From Bacteroidales bacterium (GTDB lineage Bacteria; Bacteroidota; Bacteroidia; Bacteroidales; UBA4417): a stretch of DNA of 64,000 bases. The stretch covers positions 1,496-65,495 of the forward strand of contig DAONEP010000006.1 of NCBI GenBank assembly GCA_035403165.1, written 5' to 3'. Positions within the stretch are counted from its first letter, which is position 1, and each line of letters opens with the position of its first letter. A program made the translations under genes and the position numbers. Shown here in pieces: positions 18,786 through 31,354 of this stretch. Under the pieces are notes generated by a model. It did no database searches. It was not told the origin of the DNA and was given only the letters and a program-made list of their open reading frames with translations.

Positions 18786-19044
18786 CTAATCGTAGTGGAA
18801 TCTGCATTTTGCTATCAAAATAGTATCCTCTTTAACCTGATAAATTAATCGATGTTCATCACTGATTCTGCGTGAACAGAATCCCTTGTATTTAAATTTT
18901 AAAGTTTCCGGTTCCCCCGGTCCGGTAAAGGGATTACGCGAAATATCCTTTAGCAGGTCATTCAATCGCCGGAGCATCTTTTTTATCATTCTCCTGCCAA
19001 TAAAGATAATCTTCCCAGTACTCTTCCACGAAAATATATTTCAT
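18786..19044 (-). pseudogene. yoeB: YoeB/Txe-family toxin, frameshifted in a homopolymer
   Basis: One frame gives MKYIFVEEYWEDYLYWQENDKK from the ATG at 19044. A second frame gives KKMLRRLNDLLKDISRNPFTGPGEPETLKFKYKGFCSRRISDEHRLIYQVKEDTILIAKCRFHYD. The two join at an A6 run (T6 on the plus strand, 18979-18984). Deleting one A restores an 85-aa YoeB-length protein. Confidence 0.75.
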
Positions 19045-19322
19045 GATTCAATAAGGTCTTTTTCAAAAGAGCCGGATGATCTTAATTTTTCAATCGCCGA
19101 ATCAAGCCTTTGTTCATTAATTTTCGAAGAGAGTTCATGGTAAGTGGCCGTAAGAGAATTGTATTCTTCCAGCGACATAATAACGATTCCCCTGTCTCTG
19201 CCCCGGTTAATGATCAGCGTTTCAAAGTTTTCTGTAACCTTATCGAGATATTTTTTGATATCTCGGCGAAAATCGGAAATGGAGGCCGTAAGCATGGTTG
19301 ATTTATTTATGTACTTATTCAT
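19041..19322 (-). CDS. yefM: Phd/YefM-family antitoxin
   Basis: SISDFRRDIKKYLDKVTENFETLIINRGRDRGIVIMSLEEYNSL matches the family. Its stop overlaps the toxin ATG (ATGA). The real start is possibly Met10 at 19295. Confidence 0.8.
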   Translation of the reverse strand: MNKYINKSTMLTASISDFRRDIKKYLDKVTENFETLIINRGRDRGIVIMSLEEYNSLTATYHELSSKINEQRLDSAIEKLRSSGSFEKDLIES

Positions 19323-20271: not shown

Positions 20272-23200
20272 CTATTTATTTTTAATACATGCTATTAGAT
20301 CCCTGTAGGGGTCGTTCCATTTAATGTCGTTTGTCAAACCAGGCAATAAATCCATAAAGTTGATTATCCTATTACCAATCTCTGTTTTGAATAATTCAAG
20401 ACGAAGATACGATTTATCACACTTTGATCGAAAGCGGCCTCGGTCTAATGCATCAGCATCTTTCAGAACTTTCCAAATAATGCTATCTTTGACCATAGAT
20501 GGGCATTCAGAATCAGCGACAGAATGATATATTATGGCATTTAGCGCTTGATTTTGGGTGTCTTTTTCGAGAACAAACTCACTGATCTTTGAATCATATT
20601 TCTTAGCGGATTTTAAGCCATGTGAAGGACCTTCCATATCAGATGATTTACCTAGATCATGAATAATTGCTGAATAATAGATAGCATCCTTAATTTGAGA
20701 CGAGATCATATCTGAGTACTTTAGTATCAGACAGGTTCCAAATAAAACTCTTGTAGTGTGAGCGATGCCATGATTTGAGTCAACCATTTTGGGTTCGAAT
20801 AAACTCCTGGATATCTTGAGTTTTAAACGAACCTCAAGCTGTAAAAATTCCTCAATTAGGTCTTCAGAAATTAGTGATTCTGAGTAATCAGTTGAGATGA
20901 TACTGGAATTTTTATTAGTGCTATAATTGGAATATACAATCCATTCACGTTTCCCAAGGGCCAGATCAACGAAACGAACCTCAATTGGTTTCTCTGTGAT
21001 TGTGAATCGTAATTCAGGATAGGCCATTATTTCGTCATCGGTTTCCTTGATAATTTTTTCGATATTGAGTATTTGAGTGTTCTTTAAACCTGAGCCTTTG
21101 ATTGAAAGATATGCATTATCGAGGTATTCAGATCGGATTGAAACTTCATTATTATCAAAATTAACAATAAGTTCTCTATTCATCCTGTGAAAAATATCCC
21201 ACCCATCTGCATTAATTTTCTTACAAATAGGGTCGTTGCCTAATTGAGATTTTAGCAAGTTAGCATATTCTTCGTTATAACAAATGATTTCAAATGAATC
21301 TAATGTTGAAAAATCAAATTCCTCAAGAACAAGAAATTCCTGTTGAGAATATTGTTTGTAATTTTCATAATCTGAAACTTCAGAATATAGATGCAATGTA
21401 TTGAGCGATTTAGGATTTTCGCTAACTTTTTCTACTCTTGCCCAATTTGTTTGCATATTTCCAGTACTATAAAAGCACTTGTTGGAAATTTTCATTATAA
21501 CTTCTTTCAAATTAAATTTGAAGAATACCGGGATAGGACACCTGGGTAATCCGAGATTACGAAATTGGGGATAATACGATTTCCAAATTTTTGACCATAT
21601 TTTATTGCCCTTCCAATCATACCCATCGAAAGCCCATCCTTCCTTGCCTGACTTGGAATCCATACCTAAGCATTCATTATAAAACTGCGTCGGGGTCTGA
21701 GTACGAAAATAAAATCGAGCGTAGTCGTGTGCAGTGCTTCGTCTTGCTACAAGATTACCTGCGGCATTGGAAAATTTACCATCAGCTTTGTTTCGACTAA
21801 GAATTTTCCGGCTTTTGATAATATCAATTGCATTGAATAGATGCGTAAAATGATAAATGTATGGTTCTCTGTCAAATTGCTCTAAAAATTCAACACAATT
21901 GAATTCTTCTTTGTATTTGCTTTTAGCATTGCCAATTTTTTCAATTATTTGAGGGTTTTTTCGTAGCAATTGCCAATCCCAGTTTTTGCGATACTTTTCA
22001 ATAAGTTCTTCCGTAAATTGAATTTCCAGCGATTCTGAAACATTTGACCAATTCAGAACATCTGAAAATGGTTCAAGAAGTTCGTTTGTTATTCTAAAAT
22101 CCTTTCTAGAATTAATCTCAATCCAATTCAATTTGTCTTTAAATAGTTTCAGATTTTCAGTATACATTTTAAACTTATCTGATTGAGAAATAAAATCCCA
22201 ATCGACATAATTTTGATACTTACTTAAAAATGAAATATCGGAAATATCAACAACTTCATTTTGGGTTATAAATTTCCAATCTAGACTTTCCTTATAATCC
22301 CAAAGAATTTCGGTTGAAAGATTTATATTTTTAGAAATTGCCTTCCAATCAATGTTTTGAGATTTAAGTAAAGAAAGCGTTTTAGAATTAGGTACAAAAG
22401 ATTTGTTCTGGGAAATTAGATACCAATTAATTGGCTTGCCTATCAATTTAATTACAAGTTCTTCAGAAAAAGCAATATCTGCTCTAGTTGATATAGCCTC
22501 CCAATCCCAATTCTGGTTTAAAAGTTCTATAAAGATTTCATTTTCAAACTTAATGTCATTTCTACCTGAAAGAGTTTCCCATTCCCAAGGCTTTTCTTTA
22601 TTTTCTTTTATAAATGCTAGAGAAAGTTTAACCGAAAGATTTTCTGATAGAGATGTCCAATCCCAATCATTACTAATTGTTTCAGCGAGTAGTTTCTCTG
22701 TGATATCTGAATCAGTTCTTTTAGAGAAAGAAGTAAAGTTGATAAACTTAGCGAACTTGCGGAATCGTCTTAAAAAATCTCTTTCTTTTTTGAAGCAACT
22801 GCTAAATTCTGATAGATACTCCCAATCCCATTTTTCCGACTCAATACTTAGAATTGAATCGTTCCAATTAATGTTATCTAACCTCGATAACGACTTGAAA
22901 TCCCACTTATAGGATTTGTTTTTCAATAATCTAAAAATGTCTTTTAGCCATACCTCATAGCTAAACAGAGACTTATCATATTGAAAAGATTTATTTAGTG
23001 CAATAGAACCTGATAATGTTTTCCAATCAACAAACTCGATGTTTTCGTTCAAATATTGCCTTGGATTAAAACTTGTCAAATCGTAGAAATAGCTATAATC
23101 CCATTGAAATACATCTTGATTAAATGTTTGGGAAACCAAATTTTCTAACTCTTCATAATCAAATTTGCTGGTAATTGTCTTCCAAAGTTGCTGCTTTAGC

Positions 23201-25563
23201 TCTTCGTTAAAAACATAGATACATTTTGCAACCTCTGTCAAATATTTAGAAGGTTGTAAATCTCCTTTTTCAAAGCGCTTTTTTAAAAGCATATCCCAAT
23301 TCCAGTAATCATTATACTCAGGTAGGTGATTTATGACAAATTCCTTATTTAAATTAATTGATAGGTAATCCCAATCCCAATATTCAAGATATAAATCTAA
23401 TTTATCTTCAATAATAGATAAATCAATATTCGTAGTAAGGTAGTTCCAATCCCACTTGTTAACCCATTTAGGATTACCAAGAGAATCAATTTTTATTGTA
23501 GAACAAAAGCGCTTTGTAAGAATAGACCAATCCCAATTATAATCAATATGGTTAAGAATAAACTCCTTGGAGGATTTTTCAGTAACATCTTTCCAGCATC
23601 CTGAGTTAATCTCCAAATAAGATAAAACATTTGCCTTAAAAAAAACTGCCTCTAATGTTTGGCCCGATATTCTTTTAAGCAGGATGTCAAAATTAAGTTT
23701 GTCTTTTACTGATATTAAGAACTCTGAATCATTTATCAGATTCTCATTTTCGGAAATTATATCCCAATTCCAGTTAAAATCAGGAAACTTATTAATAATC
23801 CCAGTCTCTGAGATGCGAGCAGAAATAAAATTAGAACCCTTTTGGGTTTTAATTTTTGAATTGTACTTTGTAAAAAAGTCCGGATTCCATTCAATAAATG
23901 GATTACATTCGAAACCTAGAACAAAGCTACCGCTTTCCCAGGTTAAGTACCCTGAGCTTTCTAACAAGGAAATAAGTTGATCTGTCCAAAAATAATTAGC
24001 CAGATTGGGCTGATAATCAGATAATGTAAATTCTTGTGCCGATAGAAGCACTTGAACAAAGTGAGCGGAATCACAAAACAATTTTGTATGATTTTCGGAA
24101 GCAAAAGCCCGATTGATTAAAATTTTGAGATTAAGAAATCCACTAAATTGTTGTATATTTTCTAAAATAAAGAACAAATCATAATCAGTCGAAATGAACA
24201 ACCAATTCCATTTTTTATCAGGGTATATCTCAATTAGCCTTTTTACCTCATTGTTATTGATTTCTGTCAATTCGGATAATTCAAAGTTTATTGTATTTAT
24301 ATTAGATTTGATAAACTCGAAATCCAACAACGGCATTATTCTATCCCAATCCCATTCATACTCTTTTAGTTCTGGAATCAGTAATAATGTTTTTAGGATT
24401 TCAATGCTAATATCTTCTTTGGCTGATATAATTTCAAAATTCCAAGGAAATAGAGTAGCATTTTGGATTAAAAAAACATCGTCAATCCTTAAGGATATGG
24501 AAGTCCAATCAAGATTGTCTCTATATGTTTTAAAGTACAGCTTTAATACATCAATCGGACAATGGTTTGAAATATTGAACCATTGATTTGCGTTTGCATT
24601 CTCACCCATGAAGGTAAACAATTGATTATCTTCCCAACACAAACGGGTGTCTTCTACAAGTGAATCCAAATCCAATAAATCTTCAAATGGTCTTATGGAC
24701 TTATAATCTAAAACAGCCGATGGGTCTTTTAAAAGTTTCAAGTACAAGCCCCATTCTATTTTTTTCTCTTTTGAGTCTGTATTATCTTGGCTATTCAATA
24801 AATCGGTTGCCTCATTGCAGATTTTACTGTTGTAGAATATTATTGGAAAGTATTCAGTGCCCTGTTTGTAAAGACGAATTTCTACCTGAATACTTGATAA
24901 TTTAAAGTGATTTGTTGGTTCCGATTTAAAAATTTGATAATTTTCTTTGGACTGTAAATTATGGCGTTTAATTAACTCTGATTCAACAATTTTAAATGCA
25001 TCATTGATGTCAACTTGATCATATTTAATTTGTGTTTTTCCTGTAATTTCGGAAAACTCGCCCAGTGAAGAATAAAATGGAAAAAAAATATTCTCCTTTA
25101 ATCCTGCAGGTTTGATATTGGTATTTTCTAATAACTCCTTATCCCCAGTATAGAATTTATATTTTTCTCCTAACGAAAGTGCCCTGTACCCTAAATCAGT
25201 CAATTTGAAAATAACAGGAAGTCCTTTCTCTGAAATTTGCTCAACTATACCCCAACCTAAAACAGGTTTAATAATAGCTTTAAAAATATCAAATTCAGCT
25301 TTATCGGCATATTGTTTGGGAGTTGCTTCAAAGTCGTCAAACACATTGAATCCCAATATTGTAGCAATTTTATTTTCTTCAATGAAACCATTGTTTGATT
25401 CAAGCATACTACAAATAATTCTGTCAATATCTTCAAGTGGGAAAGTTTCATAAAACGAAACCTTACAAGTGGTTTCTTTTAAACTCCAGGTGCGAAATCC
25501 TTTATCTTCAGCAACTGAAGCGTAAACAAGTTCAGAATTATTAACTATTTCTTGCCAATTCAT
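20272..25563 (-). CDS. 1763-aa multidomain protein. It has an unknown N-terminus, about 20 W-D-W repeats, a DarT-like (DUF4433) ADP-ribosyltransferase domain (about aa 1233-1440) and a C-terminal HD domain (about aa 1595-1715).
   Basis: DarT-like motifs are PYIYHFTHLFNAIDIIKSRKILSRN, LVARRSTAHDYARFYFRTQTPTQFYNE and YSQQEFLVLEEFDF. HD motifs are NHGIAHTTRV, IIHDLGK, IIYHSVAD and KDADALDRGRF. It is a single uninterrupted ORF in about 30% GC DNA. Confidence 0.85.
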   Translation of the reverse strand: MNWQEIVNNSELVYASVAEDKGFRTWSLKETTCKVSFYETFPLEDIDRIICSMLESNNGFIEENKIATILGFNVFDDFEATPKQYADKAEFDIFKAIIKPVLGWGIVEQISEKGLPVIFKLTDLGYRALSLGEKYKFYTGDKELLENTNIKPAGLKENIFFPFYSSLGEFSEITGKTQIKYDQVDINDAFKIVESELIKRHNLQSKENYQIFKSEPTNHFKLSSIQVEIRLYKQGTEYFPIIFYNSKICNEATDLLNSQDNTDSKEKKIEWGLYLKLLKDPSAVLDYKSIRPFEDLLDLDSLVEDTRLCWEDNQLFTFMGENANANQWFNISNHCPIDVLKLYFKTYRDNLDWTSISLRIDDVFLIQNATLFPWNFEIISAKEDISIEILKTLLLIPELKEYEWDWDRIMPLLDFEFIKSNINTINFELSELTEINNNEVKRLIEIYPDKKWNWLFISTDYDLFFILENIQQFSGFLNLKILINRAFASENHTKLFCDSAHFVQVLLSAQEFTLSDYQPNLANYFWTDQLISLLESSGYLTWESGSFVLGFECNPFIEWNPDFFTKYNSKIKTQKGSNFISARISETGIINKFPDFNWNWDIISENENLINDSEFLISVKDKLNFDILLKRISGQTLEAVFFKANVLSYLEINSGCWKDVTEKSSKEFILNHIDYNWDWSILTKRFCSTIKIDSLGNPKWVNKWDWNYLTTNIDLSIIEDKLDLYLEYWDWDYLSINLNKEFVINHLPEYNDYWNWDMLLKKRFEKGDLQPSKYLTEVAKCIYVFNEELKQQLWKTITSKFDYEELENLVSQTFNQDVFQWDYSYFYDLTSFNPRQYLNENIEFVDWKTLSGSIALNKSFQYDKSLFSYEVWLKDIFRLLKNKSYKWDFKSLSRLDNINWNDSILSIESEKWDWEYLSEFSSCFKKERDFLRRFRKFAKFINFTSFSKRTDSDITEKLLAETISNDWDWTSLSENLSVKLSLAFIKENKEKPWEWETLSGRNDIKFENEIFIELLNQNWDWEAISTRADIAFSEELVIKLIGKPINWYLISQNKSFVPNSKTLSLLKSQNIDWKAISKNINLSTEILWDYKESLDWKFITQNEVVDISDISFLSKYQNYVDWDFISQSDKFKMYTENLKLFKDKLNWIEINSRKDFRITNELLEPFSDVLNWSNVSESLEIQFTEELIEKYRKNWDWQLLRKNPQIIEKIGNAKSKYKEEFNCVEFLEQFDREPYIYHFTHLFNAIDIIKSRKILSRNKADGKFSNAAGNLVARRSTAHDYARFYFRTQTPTQFYNECLGMDSKSGKEGWAFDGYDWKGNKIWSKIWKSYYPQFRNLGLPRCPIPVFFKFNLKEVIMKISNKCFYSTGNMQTNWARVEKVSENPKSLNTLHLYSEVSDYENYKQYSQQEFLVLEEFDFSTLDSFEIICYNEEYANLLKSQLGNDPICKKINADGWDIFHRMNRELIVNFDNNEVSIRSEYLDNAYLSIKGSGLKNTQILNIEKIIKETDDEIMAYPELRFTITEKPIEVRFVDLALGKREWIVYSNYSTNKNSSIISTDYSESLISEDLIEEFLQLEVRLKLKISRSLFEPKMVDSNHGIAHTTRVLFGTCLILKYSDMISSQIKDAIYYSAIIHDLGKSSDMEGPSHGLKSAKKYDSKISEFVLEKDTQNQALNAIIYHSVADSECPSMVKDSIIWKVLKDADALDRGRFRSKCDKSYLRLELFKTEIGNRIINFMDLLPGLTNDIKWNDPYRDLIACIKNK
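21949..24516 (-). repeat. Protein-level repeat array with a period of about 25-26 aa and core W-[DNE]-W-x2-[LI]-[ST]-x-[NR]
   Basis: Examples are NWDWSILTKR, KWDWNYLTTN, YWDWDYLSIN, KWDWEYLSEF, DWDWTSLSEN, PWEWETLSGR, NWDWEAISTR, IDWKAISKN, VDWDFISQS and NWDWQLLRKN. The W positions 967, 993, 1019, 1047, 1073, 1096, 1122, 1147, 1172 and 1195 give spacings of 23-28 aa. Confidence 0.7.
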
Positions 25564-29293: not shown

Positions 29294-31354
29294 CTACAAA
29301 AACCACAAATTATCTTTTCCAAATTCAGGGACATCGAGGCCGTCGAAGTGGGGGGCTATCTGGGCGATGATTTCGGGGTATTTGATGGTGACAGGTAGGT
29401 TCTGCTGGCGTACTGATTTCCAGTACATGCGGCTGAACTGGTACACCTGGTCTATCAGGTCGCGGATGATGGTTGTATCGTCCAGCTTGCTTTTATCGGT
29501 ACAATCAATTTTCAATTTGATTGGGAACGGCCATCCGTCGGCTTCGCGAAACGGCTGATTGCTGTAACGGGTATTGTTAAACAGCAGGTATTTGCGGTTT
29601 CCAATGTTGATATAGGTTCCGCTGTAAGGCATTTTATCGCTCCATGATTCATCGAAAGCCACAATATCCTCAGATTCCGTTTTGTTGATGGATATAATAA
29701 AGACAGGAATGTGAAGGTCCAAGGCTTCGAGGGCTTTCTGGATGGGTTGCAGCTCATCGTCGGACATGGTCTTGTAGAAATGGATAATCAACCTGTCAGG
29801 TGAGGAATTGACCGTTGCATATTCACGAATCTGGTGAGAGATAGATCCGGCAAGCAATTCGAGTTCATGTTTCATGAAATACTCGAAGCGGTTGAAAGTG
29901 CCATTGTTGTTGAAGCTAAAAGCACTGCCAATATACTGAACATCGGTTTCGATGTGTTTGAATGCTCCAACACCGACAATGAGTTCGTTTTTTAGCTGGG
30001 CTTTCAAACGCCAGGGCGTTCCTTTTAACTTAGCCAGGATTGCAATGGAAATATTTGTAAGGCTGTAAACATAATCAGCACCCTGTTCAATGACCTTTTT
30101 TGAATCGATGACCTGTGAGGGTATATCCCTTTTAAGCAGCAGCTCTTTGACCTTATAGTAGATTTCACGTTTTTGTAAATCCTGATCAAACTTGGTGTAA
30201 GGGGTCAAATAGATGGCAAAGTACTTCACATCCTGATTGAAGCTGCGTTTTGCCAATACTTCATTTATTTCCTGTACCGGATTTTCTTTGTCCTTAAACA
30301 GGATGCTGAAATGCGGTTCGGTGTGAAAAAGTATTTTTACATACTTATTCAAGCCTTTAAACCAGTCTAAACCGGTTTCGAGGTATGTTTTCACTGCTTT
30401 GGCAATCTCGGCATCGGAATTATGAAGGATAAAGAACAGATGTATCTTTTTGTAAGGGGTTTTGTCGTATGGACCGTTTAATTTGATGCCATTGTGAGGA
30501 ACAATATCGGTTGCGCTATTTCCGAATACCATCTGATTGCTATCGAAGTTGGTAGTGCTGATGAGTGCAGGATTCACTTTCAGAAAGCCTGTATGATGCA
30601 AAGGAATGATTTCACGGAACTCCTTTATGTTTAAGAAAGTCTTGTGAAAATCGTTAATCTTGTTCCGGTAATGCTTGTACTTGTTTTCTTTTGAAGGTAT
30701 TGGCGCAGGGAAACCAAGCGCCCTTGCAAGTTCGTTATTCAATACCGGATAAACGTTTTCGTAATCATCAGACAAGTCATCCGGCAGATCATCGAATTTA
30801 TGCAATTGGTTTTTTACCATTACCCAATTTAACAACGAAGGCGAATTATCAGCCATCAGTTCAGCTACACTCTTCTTCAAAACCTTGGATGTACCTTCGT
30901 ATGATATAAAGATTTCTGGGTATTGGCTCACTGTAGCGATCTGGACCTTGAGTGCATATTTTTCATATACTTCAAACTGGTCGGTATCTGCCGCAGGTAC
31001 TGGCAACCAAATGGTATTCTCCTTAATAAATCCAACCTGGACAATCTGATTAACGATTACCCGGAAGTAGTAGTTTATTTTCCGATCGAAATAGCGCTTT
31101 ATGAATGCGGGTGTTTCTTTTCTTGCATCCAAGGTGCAAGGAATAAAGCCTGCTGTTTCGCCAGTGAATGTGGTATAAACAAAATCGGAGCCGTTGGCAC
31201 TTATTCCGGGAAATATAGTTTCAACTGCAGCCGGGAAGATTGATTTGTGGATACGCTGGCAACGGCCGTTGTCCGCTTTGCTGAAATAGAAAGTTAGCTT
31301 TTCTTCAGGCCAGTCGAAGGTAAGTATGTTGAAATGGAGATCGGGAGGAGGCAT
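29294..31354 (-). CDS. Prokaryotic Argonaute (MID-PIWI), predicted catalytically inactive (long-B-like / DdmE-like)
   Basis: MID-like motifs are YYKVKELLLKRDIPSQVI and NISIAILAKLKGTPWRL. The PIWI motifs have lost their acidic residues (IVGVGAFKH instead of GxDV, LIIHFYK instead of hRDG). Also seen are LPVTIKYPEIIAQ and the C-terminal NLWFL. Confidence 0.8.
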   Translation of the reverse strand: MPPPDLHFNILTFDWPEEKLTFYFSKADNGRCQRIHKSIFPAAVETIFPGISANGSDFVYTTFTGETAGFIPCTLDARKETPAFIKRYFDRKINYYFRVIVNQIVQVGFIKENTIWLPVPAADTDQFEVYEKYALKVQIATVSQYPEIFISYEGTSKVLKKSVAELMADNSPSLLNWVMVKNQLHKFDDLPDDLSDDYENVYPVLNNELARALGFPAPIPSKENKYKHYRNKINDFHKTFLNIKEFREIIPLHHTGFLKVNPALISTTNFDSNQMVFGNSATDIVPHNGIKLNGPYDKTPYKKIHLFFILHNSDAEIAKAVKTYLETGLDWFKGLNKYVKILFHTEPHFSILFKDKENPVQEINEVLAKRSFNQDVKYFAIYLTPYTKFDQDLQKREIYYKVKELLLKRDIPSQVIDSKKVIEQGADYVYSLTNISIAILAKLKGTPWRLKAQLKNELIVGVGAFKHIETDVQYIGSAFSFNNNGTFNRFEYFMKHELELLAGSISHQIREYATVNSSPDRLIIHFYKTMSDDELQPIQKALEALDLHIPVFIISINKTESEDIVAFDESWSDKMPYSGTYINIGNRKYLLFNNTRYSNQPFREADGWPFPIKLKIDCTDKSKLDDTTIIRDLIDQVYQFSRMYWKSVRQQNLPVTIKYPEIIAQIAPHFDGLDVPEFGKDNLWFL

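Follow-up and report, generated by a model that had tools for sequence, protein, structure and literature searches.

The 64,000-nucleotide stretch analysed here (the window; positions 1,496 to 65,495 of contig DAONEP010000006.1, assembly GCA_035403165.1, from a Bacteroidales bacterium) encodes a giant DarT protein in which a long array of W-D-W repeats lies between an N-terminal domain and the DarT ADP-ribosyltransferase domain. We found that the array is real, that it is predicted to fold as an all-helical solenoid and that it can be assigned, on fold-level and transitive sequence evidence, to the tryptophan repeat gene family. A first-pass annotation, made from the sequence letters, had noted the repeats at 21949-24516, which correspond to residues ~350-1205 of the 1763-residue open reading frame (ORF) on the minus strand. 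The array may be best described as an LRV-like tryptophan-repeat arm that most likely binds protein and serves a recognition or regulatory role; for this reading, in which binding, regulation and any part in defence are all inferred, we consider the chances to be about even.

That the W-D-W repeat array exists as observed was confirmed in several ways. A regular expression for strict W-[DNE]-W-like cores found 14 in the span first noted, with spacings of 25-27 amino acids (aa) recurring in both halves, and a hidden Markov model (HMM) of the unit derived from the array itself recovered 22 units. For a non-circular test we used a unit HMM made solely from other proteins (representatives P0123-P0270). 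It found 25 units at residues 352-1206, 19 of them with an independent E value (i-E) below 0.01, as against a mean of 0.06 significant units and a maximum of 1 when the array region was shuffled (n = 50). The array is thus no artefact, and with either HMM the earlier count of at least 20 copies holds, as does the regular spacing of 23-28 aa given for the C-terminal half, where we measured 23-26 aa. A four-unit profile built from non-DarT proteins alone (profile A4) was run against the organism's own 3.29-Mb genome, in which it matched the giant ORF six times (E 1.7e-19 to 7.7e-4) and had no other match anywhere. Tryptophan accounts for 5.0% of the array residues, compared with 1.3-2.2% in the other domains of the giant protein.

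The period is 25-26 aa. Residues ~886-1206 make up 13 units that run almost without interruption, and the N-terminal half of the array is broken by non-repeat helical inserts at ~465-585 and ~770-880. The unit consensus across the family is DKWDWEALSSNPSLPWSEELIEKYK, and the spacing of units in the family has its mode at 25 aa, with minor modes at 23, 24 and 26 aa. Within the window units, the W-D-W-x-x-[LI]-S-x-N half of the consensus is well kept and the L-P-W-S-x-E-L-I-E-K-Y half is kept loosely.

Structure prediction with AlphaFold2 (AF2) indicated an all-alpha solenoid with two short helices in each unit. The model of residues 331-1230 (900 aa), run with a 39-sequence family alignment, reached a mean predicted local distance difference test (pLDDT) score of 91.5 with no segment below 50, and DSSP assigned helices throughout except for two isolated single-residue bridge marks. 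In a second model, of residues 948-1215 (268 aa; pLDDT 92.8, predicted template modelling score 0.80), a helix of 5-7 residues recurred about every 13 residues, giving two short helices per unit. Helix 1 is formed by W-x-x-L-S-x, beginning at the second Trp of W-D-W, and helix 2 by the (E)ELIEK segment, with the N-P-x-L-P-W-S and Y-x-D-x-W-D stretches as the loops between them. The conserved Trp, Leu, Ser and Asn of the units would pack the solenoid core. The earlier impression of a long solenoid is supported by this confident prediction, and a predicted structure other than a repeat solenoid, named at the outset as the result that would speak against it, was not what AF2 returned.

Known solenoid classes fitted poorly. 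We rejected a classical LRR, which has a beta strand in each unit and an LxxLxLxxN pattern, because no strands were predicted in either AF2 model; there was no LRR match in Pfam either. The 34-47-aa hairpin units of TPR, HEAT and ARM repeats were rejected in view of the 25-26-aa period, the helices of only 5-7 residues and the lack of a Pfam match. When the 900-aa model was compared with the PDB by Foldseek, only generic HEAT-type solenoids, karyopherins among them, were returned (best E 2.6e-4, template modelling (TM) score ~0.1). The 268-aa model found nothing in the PDB under E 0.9, its weak and non-significant matches including Pumilio repeats (E 1.7-7, TM <0.2). By sequence, neither the array, nor the relative P0185, nor profile A4 matched the PDB under E 0.14 (best E 0.14-0.26).

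Predicted viral structures, by comparison, matched strongly. Foldseek against BFVD, which holds such structures, yielded 44 matches at E<1e-3, each of them at probability 1.0. Among these are MSV027 (1.4e-9), MSV205 (1.8e-9) and MSV029 (1e-7) of Melanoplus sanguinipes entomopoxvirus, AMV029 and same-named proteins of other entomopoxviruses, gp558, gp560, gp562 and gp563 of Bacillus phage G (6e-10 for gp563), and proteins of Megaviridae, Marseillevirus, Pithovirus, Orpheovirus, Mimivirus and a baculovirus; an iridovirus protein gave a weaker match (E 4e-3). At the sequence level, phrog_3532 matched residues 1069-1219 directly at 2e-12, and a phmmer search of the full database with residues 878-1215 reached at least 1263 representative clusters, each a cluster of proteins at 50% identity, with E<=1e-3; 206 of them lie at E<=1e-10. 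The bacterial relative P0292 from Flavobacterium cellulosilyticum is entered in UniRef as 'Tryptophan repeat gene family protein', and another relative, P0185, matches genes of Bacillus phage vB_BpuM-BpSp annotated as 'putative tryptophan repeat gene family protein'. The window array accordingly shows what characterises the family, namely tandem units of 23-26 aa with conserved Trp and similarity to proteins that bear the family name.

The statement of the first-pass annotation that the repeat could not be placed in any named family is therefore superseded: the array matches the tryptophan repeat gene family at the fold level, and bacterial relatives tie it to that family at the sequence level. 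According to the same annotation, the defence reading was to fall if the repeats mapped to a well-known family whose accepted role lies outside defence; this does not apply, because no role has been established for the tryptophan repeat family. When the whole protein and the array alone were compared with Pfam, NCBIfam, PADLOC and PHROGs, no repeat family emerged, just PHROG 3532 and matches judged to be spurious (ZapC_N, HTH_Tnp_2 and Myb). An idealised consensus of eight copies likewise gave spurious Pfam matches to Sigma_1s and CaM-KIIN alone, and none to LRV, LRR or TPR; no model in Pfam or NCBIfam matches the window array, even at E<=10. The family name exists as an annotation label only, and it is also borne by proteins of Bacillus phages G and BpSp, iridoviruses and giant viruses. 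In virus genome papers the family label carries no functional information (PMC12484599, PMC6669658, PMC3901692), and the entomopoxvirus protein AMV254 has been reported as an F-box and tryptophan-repeat protein (PMC7728225). Literature searches on 'WDW repeat', 'WDW motif' and LRV_2/PF25591 gave nothing relevant.

The array shares with the viral tryptophan-repeat proteins the unit of 23-26 aa and the predicted stack of short helices (BFVD E 1e-10 to 1e-3, at 18-26% identity). However, the viral members are small stand-alone proteins of ~130-630 aa, often in multigene families, whereas the window array comprises ~25 units inside a 1763-aa enzyme, between the N-domain and DarT.

It is also likely, from profile comparisons of its relatives, that the repeat is LRV-like in the sense of a distant relationship, not of membership. 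Among the 73 repeat-bearing relatives compared with Pfam, three matched LRV_2 (PF25591) at E<=0.001, and two of these exceeded the gathering score of 27 bits (P0192, 40.4; P0180, 32.6; P0184, 26.6). P0192 and P0180 are in turn phmmer matches of the window array, at E 3e-18 and 1e-20. The window protein and its array gave no LRV or LRV_2 match at E<=10, which places them outside LRV_2, and for classical LRV (PF01816), the repeat of the Azotobacter LRV protein, Foldseek against the PDB returned no LRV structure. The likeness to LRV consists in the 23-26-aa period, two short helices per unit without strands and the shared pattern [LI]-S-x-N-P-x-L-[PT]-x-x-x-I-E-K-Y. In contrast, the Trp core is a feature of the window repeat and not of LRV, and the relatives match LRV_2 at profile positions 28-43 of 61 alone, with no single stretch passing by itself. 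The sole relatives reaching LRV_2 belong to a variant with a 23-aa period, seen in the metagenomic proteins P0192, P0180, P0184 and P0210 as nearly perfect tandem copies of the unit Y-E-N-K-L-D-W-x-x-L-S-x-N-P-x-L-T-P-A-L-I-E-K; two of these four proteins carry DUF5754.

We next consider conservation. When grouped at 90% identity, the homologues of the giant DarT fall into 118 clusters that align over 98-100% of the array, and the length of most is ~1400-1950 aa. Most of them carry a precomputed DarT (PF14487) match, and a few are shorter and apparently partial. All those with names are Bacteroidota (Paludibacter, Saccharicrinis, Winogradskyella, Oceanihabitans, Bacteroidales), and the closest are 73-76% identical in protein. 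The number of repeats is fixed among orthologues. Over 38 homologues, the most distant at 26% identity, the length of the array is mostly 860-960 aa (range 805-1124), the Trp count is 37-52 and the array has an occupancy of 0.98 in the alignment. The comparison of repeat number suggested with the first-pass annotation thus returned a constant, and not the variation expected as the signature of a sensor. Mean identity to the window protein is 0.44 for the array, 0.45 for the N-domain and 0.59 for DarT. Within the units, mean identity among orthologues is 0.62 in the core, where the Trp positions are invariant, and 0.36 at the surface. It is lowest (0.21-0.30) at unit positions 6, 7 and 10, the ones that the W-x-x-L-S-x helix exposes. 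The array is acidic, with a net charge of -35 and an isoelectric point (pI) of 4.8. Short stand-alone close homologues were sought with a 263-aa piece of the array as query; DarT fragments alone were returned.

Elsewhere the repeat is found fused to a variety of enzymes. Among the best 120 relatives of a stand-alone repeat protein, the commonest partner was a Ser/Thr kinase (27), followed by Pif1/AAA_30-type helicases (6), UDG (3), PLD (2), HRDC (2), DarT (2; short forms of 762-861 aa), a dynamin-like GTPase (1) and Hsp70 (1), and ~70 had no other domain. Further fusions involve HNH and a weak MUG113/T5orf172-like N-domain. One Pif1-repeat fusion gene lies among integrases and genes for a WHH/colicin-DNase protein, UDG and PLD. 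In Flavobacterium cellulosilyticum, a PLDc_2 gene is followed 3 nucleotides later by the stand-alone repeat protein P0292 (L015:4637-7497), and in other bacteria PLD and the repeat are fused in one protein (P0310, P0312). This Rosetta-stone pattern suggests that the repeat works together with the enzyme that accompanies it.

The coordinates of the array, of the other domains and of the partner genes are given in Table 1.

Table 1 Giant DarT gene, its domains and its partner genes, in positions of the window
Feature	Position	Strand	Evidence or remarks
Giant gene, 1763 aa	20272..25563	minus	N-domain, Trp-repeat array, DarT and HD-like C-terminus; ORF list and translation
N-terminal domain, residues 1-344	24532..25563	minus	Identity 0.45 and occupancy 0.97 among orthologues
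W-D-W array, residues ~345-1210, ~25 units of 25-26 aa and two helical inserts	21934..24531	minus	Unit HMMs, AF2 (predicted), profile A4
Regular C-terminal sub-array, residues 878-1210, 13 units, directly before DarT	21934..22932	minus	23-26 aa spacing, AF2 (predicted), BFVD, phrog_3532
DarT ADP-ribosyltransferase domain, residues ~1232-1443	21235..21870	minus	Pfam PF14487, PADLOC DarT
HD-like C-terminal region, residues ~1560-1763	20275..20886	minus	H...HD motif; in less than half of orthologues
Upstream partner, SF1 helicase, 1212 aa	25560..29198	minus	AAA_11/AAA_12; PADLOC MkoA
Downstream partner, DarG-like macrodomain protein, 237 aa	19557..20270	minus	Pfam Macro; PADLOC DarG

The N-domain has no Pfam match even at E<=10. 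The DarT domain is clearly recognisable (PF14487 at 4.5e-13, 49.8 bits against a cut-off of 22.5; PADLOC DarT 5e-7), and its YHFTH..N..SR and QQEFL columns are nearly invariant across the giant-DarT homologues. In the HD-like tail the motif HGIAHTTRV ... IHDLGK can be read in the translation; on the giant protein the Pfam HD model stayed above E 0.1, and PF01966 is present in the homologues P0091, P0100 and P0136. Because most orthologues end at ~1540 aa, shortly past DarT, and the occupancy of the tail in the alignment is 0.44, the HD-like region appears to be an optional add-on. No NTPase was matched in the giant protein in the Pfam, NCBIfam and PADLOC scans, which sets it apart from STAND/Avs-type proteins.

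The giant gene is translationally coupled with both of its neighbours. The stop of the upstream gene, for a superfamily 1 (SF1) helicase, overlaps the giant-gene start by 4 nucleotides, and the downstream macrodomain gene begins 1 nucleotide past the giant-gene stop. The helicase matches PADLOC MkoA at 3e-95, with the best stretches in its C-terminal part (residues 861-1203); its nSTAND matches are below threshold and cover the P-loop alone. Its N-terminal 630 residues match no Pfam or NCBIfam family, and the repeat arm may dock onto this N-terminal half. The macro protein matches Pfam Macro (2e-14) and PADLOC DarG (1e-52, at profile positions 7-193 of 329), and on NCBIfam DarG it scores 172 bits against a cut-off of 250, at positions 6-169 of 338. 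Of the two parts of DarTG, then, a DarT domain is present and a full-length DarG, with macrodomain and C-terminal domain, is not. The order of the trio, with overlapping or abutting genes, was kept in all five homologue contexts (Winogradskyella, Saccharicrinis, a JGI contig, P0119 and P0110), two of which are distant, at 25-31% identity to the window protein; in the P0110 context (L011) the upstream gene is a 407-aa end-of-contig gene represented by its 3' end only and without Pfam data.

The trio lies in a horizontally acquired, defence-type island. The GC content of the giant-ORF stretch is 30-35%, compared with ~50% in the flanking glycoside-hydrolase genes, and across the island (window positions ~18500-44000) it drops from ~50% to 30-44%. 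Besides the trio, the island genes encode a prokaryotic Argonaute (pAgo), a ResIII/SNF2 helicase, an HTH-IrrE protein, a Schlafen AlbA_2 protein and an N6/N4 methyltransferase, and on its left side the island adjoins the glycoside-hydrolase genes GH127 and GH2. The 64-kb window is devoid of tRNA genes. The pAgo, which has a Piwi domain, is encoded at 29294-31354 (minus strand), directly upstream of the trio, and Winogradskyella epiphytica has a pAgo (L007:2224-4323) in the same order of restriction-modification (R-M) helicase, pAgo, SF1 helicase, giant DarT and macro genes. It was rejected as a fourth member of the module since the contexts of Saccharicrinis, the JGI contig and P0119 lack it; that of P0110, whose contig breaks off within the upstream gene, is uninformative. 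The pAgo is a frequent island neighbour and not a core part. Directly 3' of the macro gene, with a gap of less than 50 nucleotides or a few-base overlap, a PIN_4 protein of 385-390 aa is encoded in Winogradskyella (L007:13311-14483) and Saccharicrinis (L009:14255-15412). The window has no PIN_4 gene there and carries instead a small toxin-antitoxin-like pair at ~18790-19320.

In canonical DarTG, the C-terminal half of DarG binds and neutralises DarT, and DarT (DarT1, DarT2) acts on single-stranded DNA (ssDNA). A brake other than DarG would be needed here, because the macro protein lacks the C-terminal, DarT-binding half. We propose that the ~25 units and two helical inserts form a fixed arm of 870 residues between the N-domain and the DarT ssDNA ADP-ribosyltransferase. 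By docking the SF1 helicase, by recognising a protein from an invader or by both, this arm would hold DarT silent until a trigger arrives, and the role left to the short DarG-like macrodomain would be to erase stray ADP-ribose. A protein ligand seems more probable than a nucleic acid since the array is acidic. Its use as a modular recognition arm is suggested by the fusion of the repeat to many enzymes and by AMV254, whose F-box gives it the architecture of a substrate-recognition subunit. We further count the variable exposed face on a conserved core in favour of a recognition arm, and in favour of the reading as a whole the coupled trio, kept in 5/5 contexts and located in a low-GC island that it shares with pAgo, R-M and Schlafen-type genes.

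Several observations weigh against a protein-recognising arm. Some of the fusion partners act on nucleic acids and could equally point to a nucleic-acid-related role. The 38 homologues show no expansion or contraction of the repeats and no hypervariability. With its fixed length and a rate of change no higher than that of the N-domain, the array bears no mark of the rapid diversification seen in some immune sensors. Our literature searches gave no paper on the structure or function of the repeat. A sensor or recognition role remains our best guess, and it is an inferred one.

The strict conservation of length and unit number down to 26% identity, together with the invariant Trp core positions, is what would be expected if the array were a passive spacer or oligomerisation scaffold that holds the N-domain, DarT and HD at set distances, or multimerises with the helicase, with no ligand to recognise. 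We consider this unlikely, although it is the strongest of the competing explanations, given that exposed positions 6, 7 and 10 vary far more than the core and that the repeat is joined to many unrelated enzymes and also occurs alone and in viral multigene families, a pattern typical of interaction modules. The array might instead bind nucleic acid, as PUF, PPR or TALE solenoids do, and so position DarT on ssDNA unwound by the partner helicase. The family's fusion partners are indeed enriched in DNA enzymes (Pif1-type helicase, UDG, PLD, HNH, HRDC, DarT), the substrate of DarT is ssDNA, and Pumilio repeats appear among the weak Foldseek matches. Those matches are not significant, however, the commonest fusion partner is a Ser/Thr kinase, the array is strongly acidic and the conserved Trp behave as core residues, invariant across orthologues; taken together, these points make nucleic-acid binding distinctly improbable.

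A classical LRR or a TPR/HEAT variant with a housekeeping role, or an accident of composition, has been largely refuted and we give it hardly any weight. The L-S-x-N motif does recall the asparagine ladder of LRR proteins, and the full-length model weakly matches HEAT-type karyopherins, but no strands are predicted, the 25-aa period is unfit for TPR or HEAT, and no such family is matched in Pfam at E<=10. Shuffling abolishes the signal, which argues against a compositional origin, and the horizontally acquired island is not the context of a housekeeping gene.

The recognition arm that we favour can be compared with two known kinds of system. The first-pass annotation had likened the array to the sensors of STAND, Avs and other defence proteins, and of this the sensor role is retained as the best guess while the STAND setting is not. 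Like the TPR, LRR or WD40 arms of STAND, Avs and NLR proteins, the array is a long predicted solenoid that is joined to an effector and encoded in a defence-type island, with a conserved core and a variable face. Unlike them, it occurs in a protein without a STAND NTPase and with an SF1 helicase as partner, its repeat is of another type and its repeat number is fixed. With DarTG the system shares a DarT domain and a DarG-type macrodomain in adjacent, coupled genes. Canonical DarT, however, is a small single-domain protein of ~200 aa, whereas the window DarT is extended by ~1200 residues at its N terminus, the array among them, and by an HD-like tail; in addition, the macro protein is without the C-terminal half of DarG, and the SF1 helicase is an obligatory third gene. 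Literature searches on giant or helicase-linked DarT found no description of such a system.

A broader reading, which we put forward tentatively and hold to be possible but clearly short of an even chance, is that the tryptophan repeat serves both sides in biological conflicts as a general and exchangeable cassette for recognition. Bacteria would bolt the repeat onto DarT, PLD, HNH, Pif1-type helicases, UDG and Ser/Thr kinases as an invader-sensing arm, and jumbo phages, entomopoxviruses and giant viruses would use stand-alone copies as decoys or host-factor binders. On this view the giant DarT would be a defence enzyme that ADP-ribosylates DNA, assisted by the helicase and gated by a trigger. 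If true, this would establish a new class of immune-sensor repeat on a par with the LRR of NLR and the TPR of Avs proteins.

Compared with the stand-alone viral members, what is new here is an 870-residue array built into the bacterial DarT of a conserved three-gene system. The repeat occurs in more than 1000 clusters at 50% identity, from bacteria, jumbo phages and large eukaryotic DNA viruses, and the lack of a matching model is a gap that we flag for the curators of domain databases. The assignment gives the tryptophan repeat family its first enzyme-coupled, genetically tractable setting, in which the toxin read-out could reveal the ligands of the repeat, and it offers an explanation of how DarT may be controlled where the DarG-like partner lacks the toxin-binding half. 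If the arm is a sensor, it would add a repeat class to prokaryotic and viral immunity.

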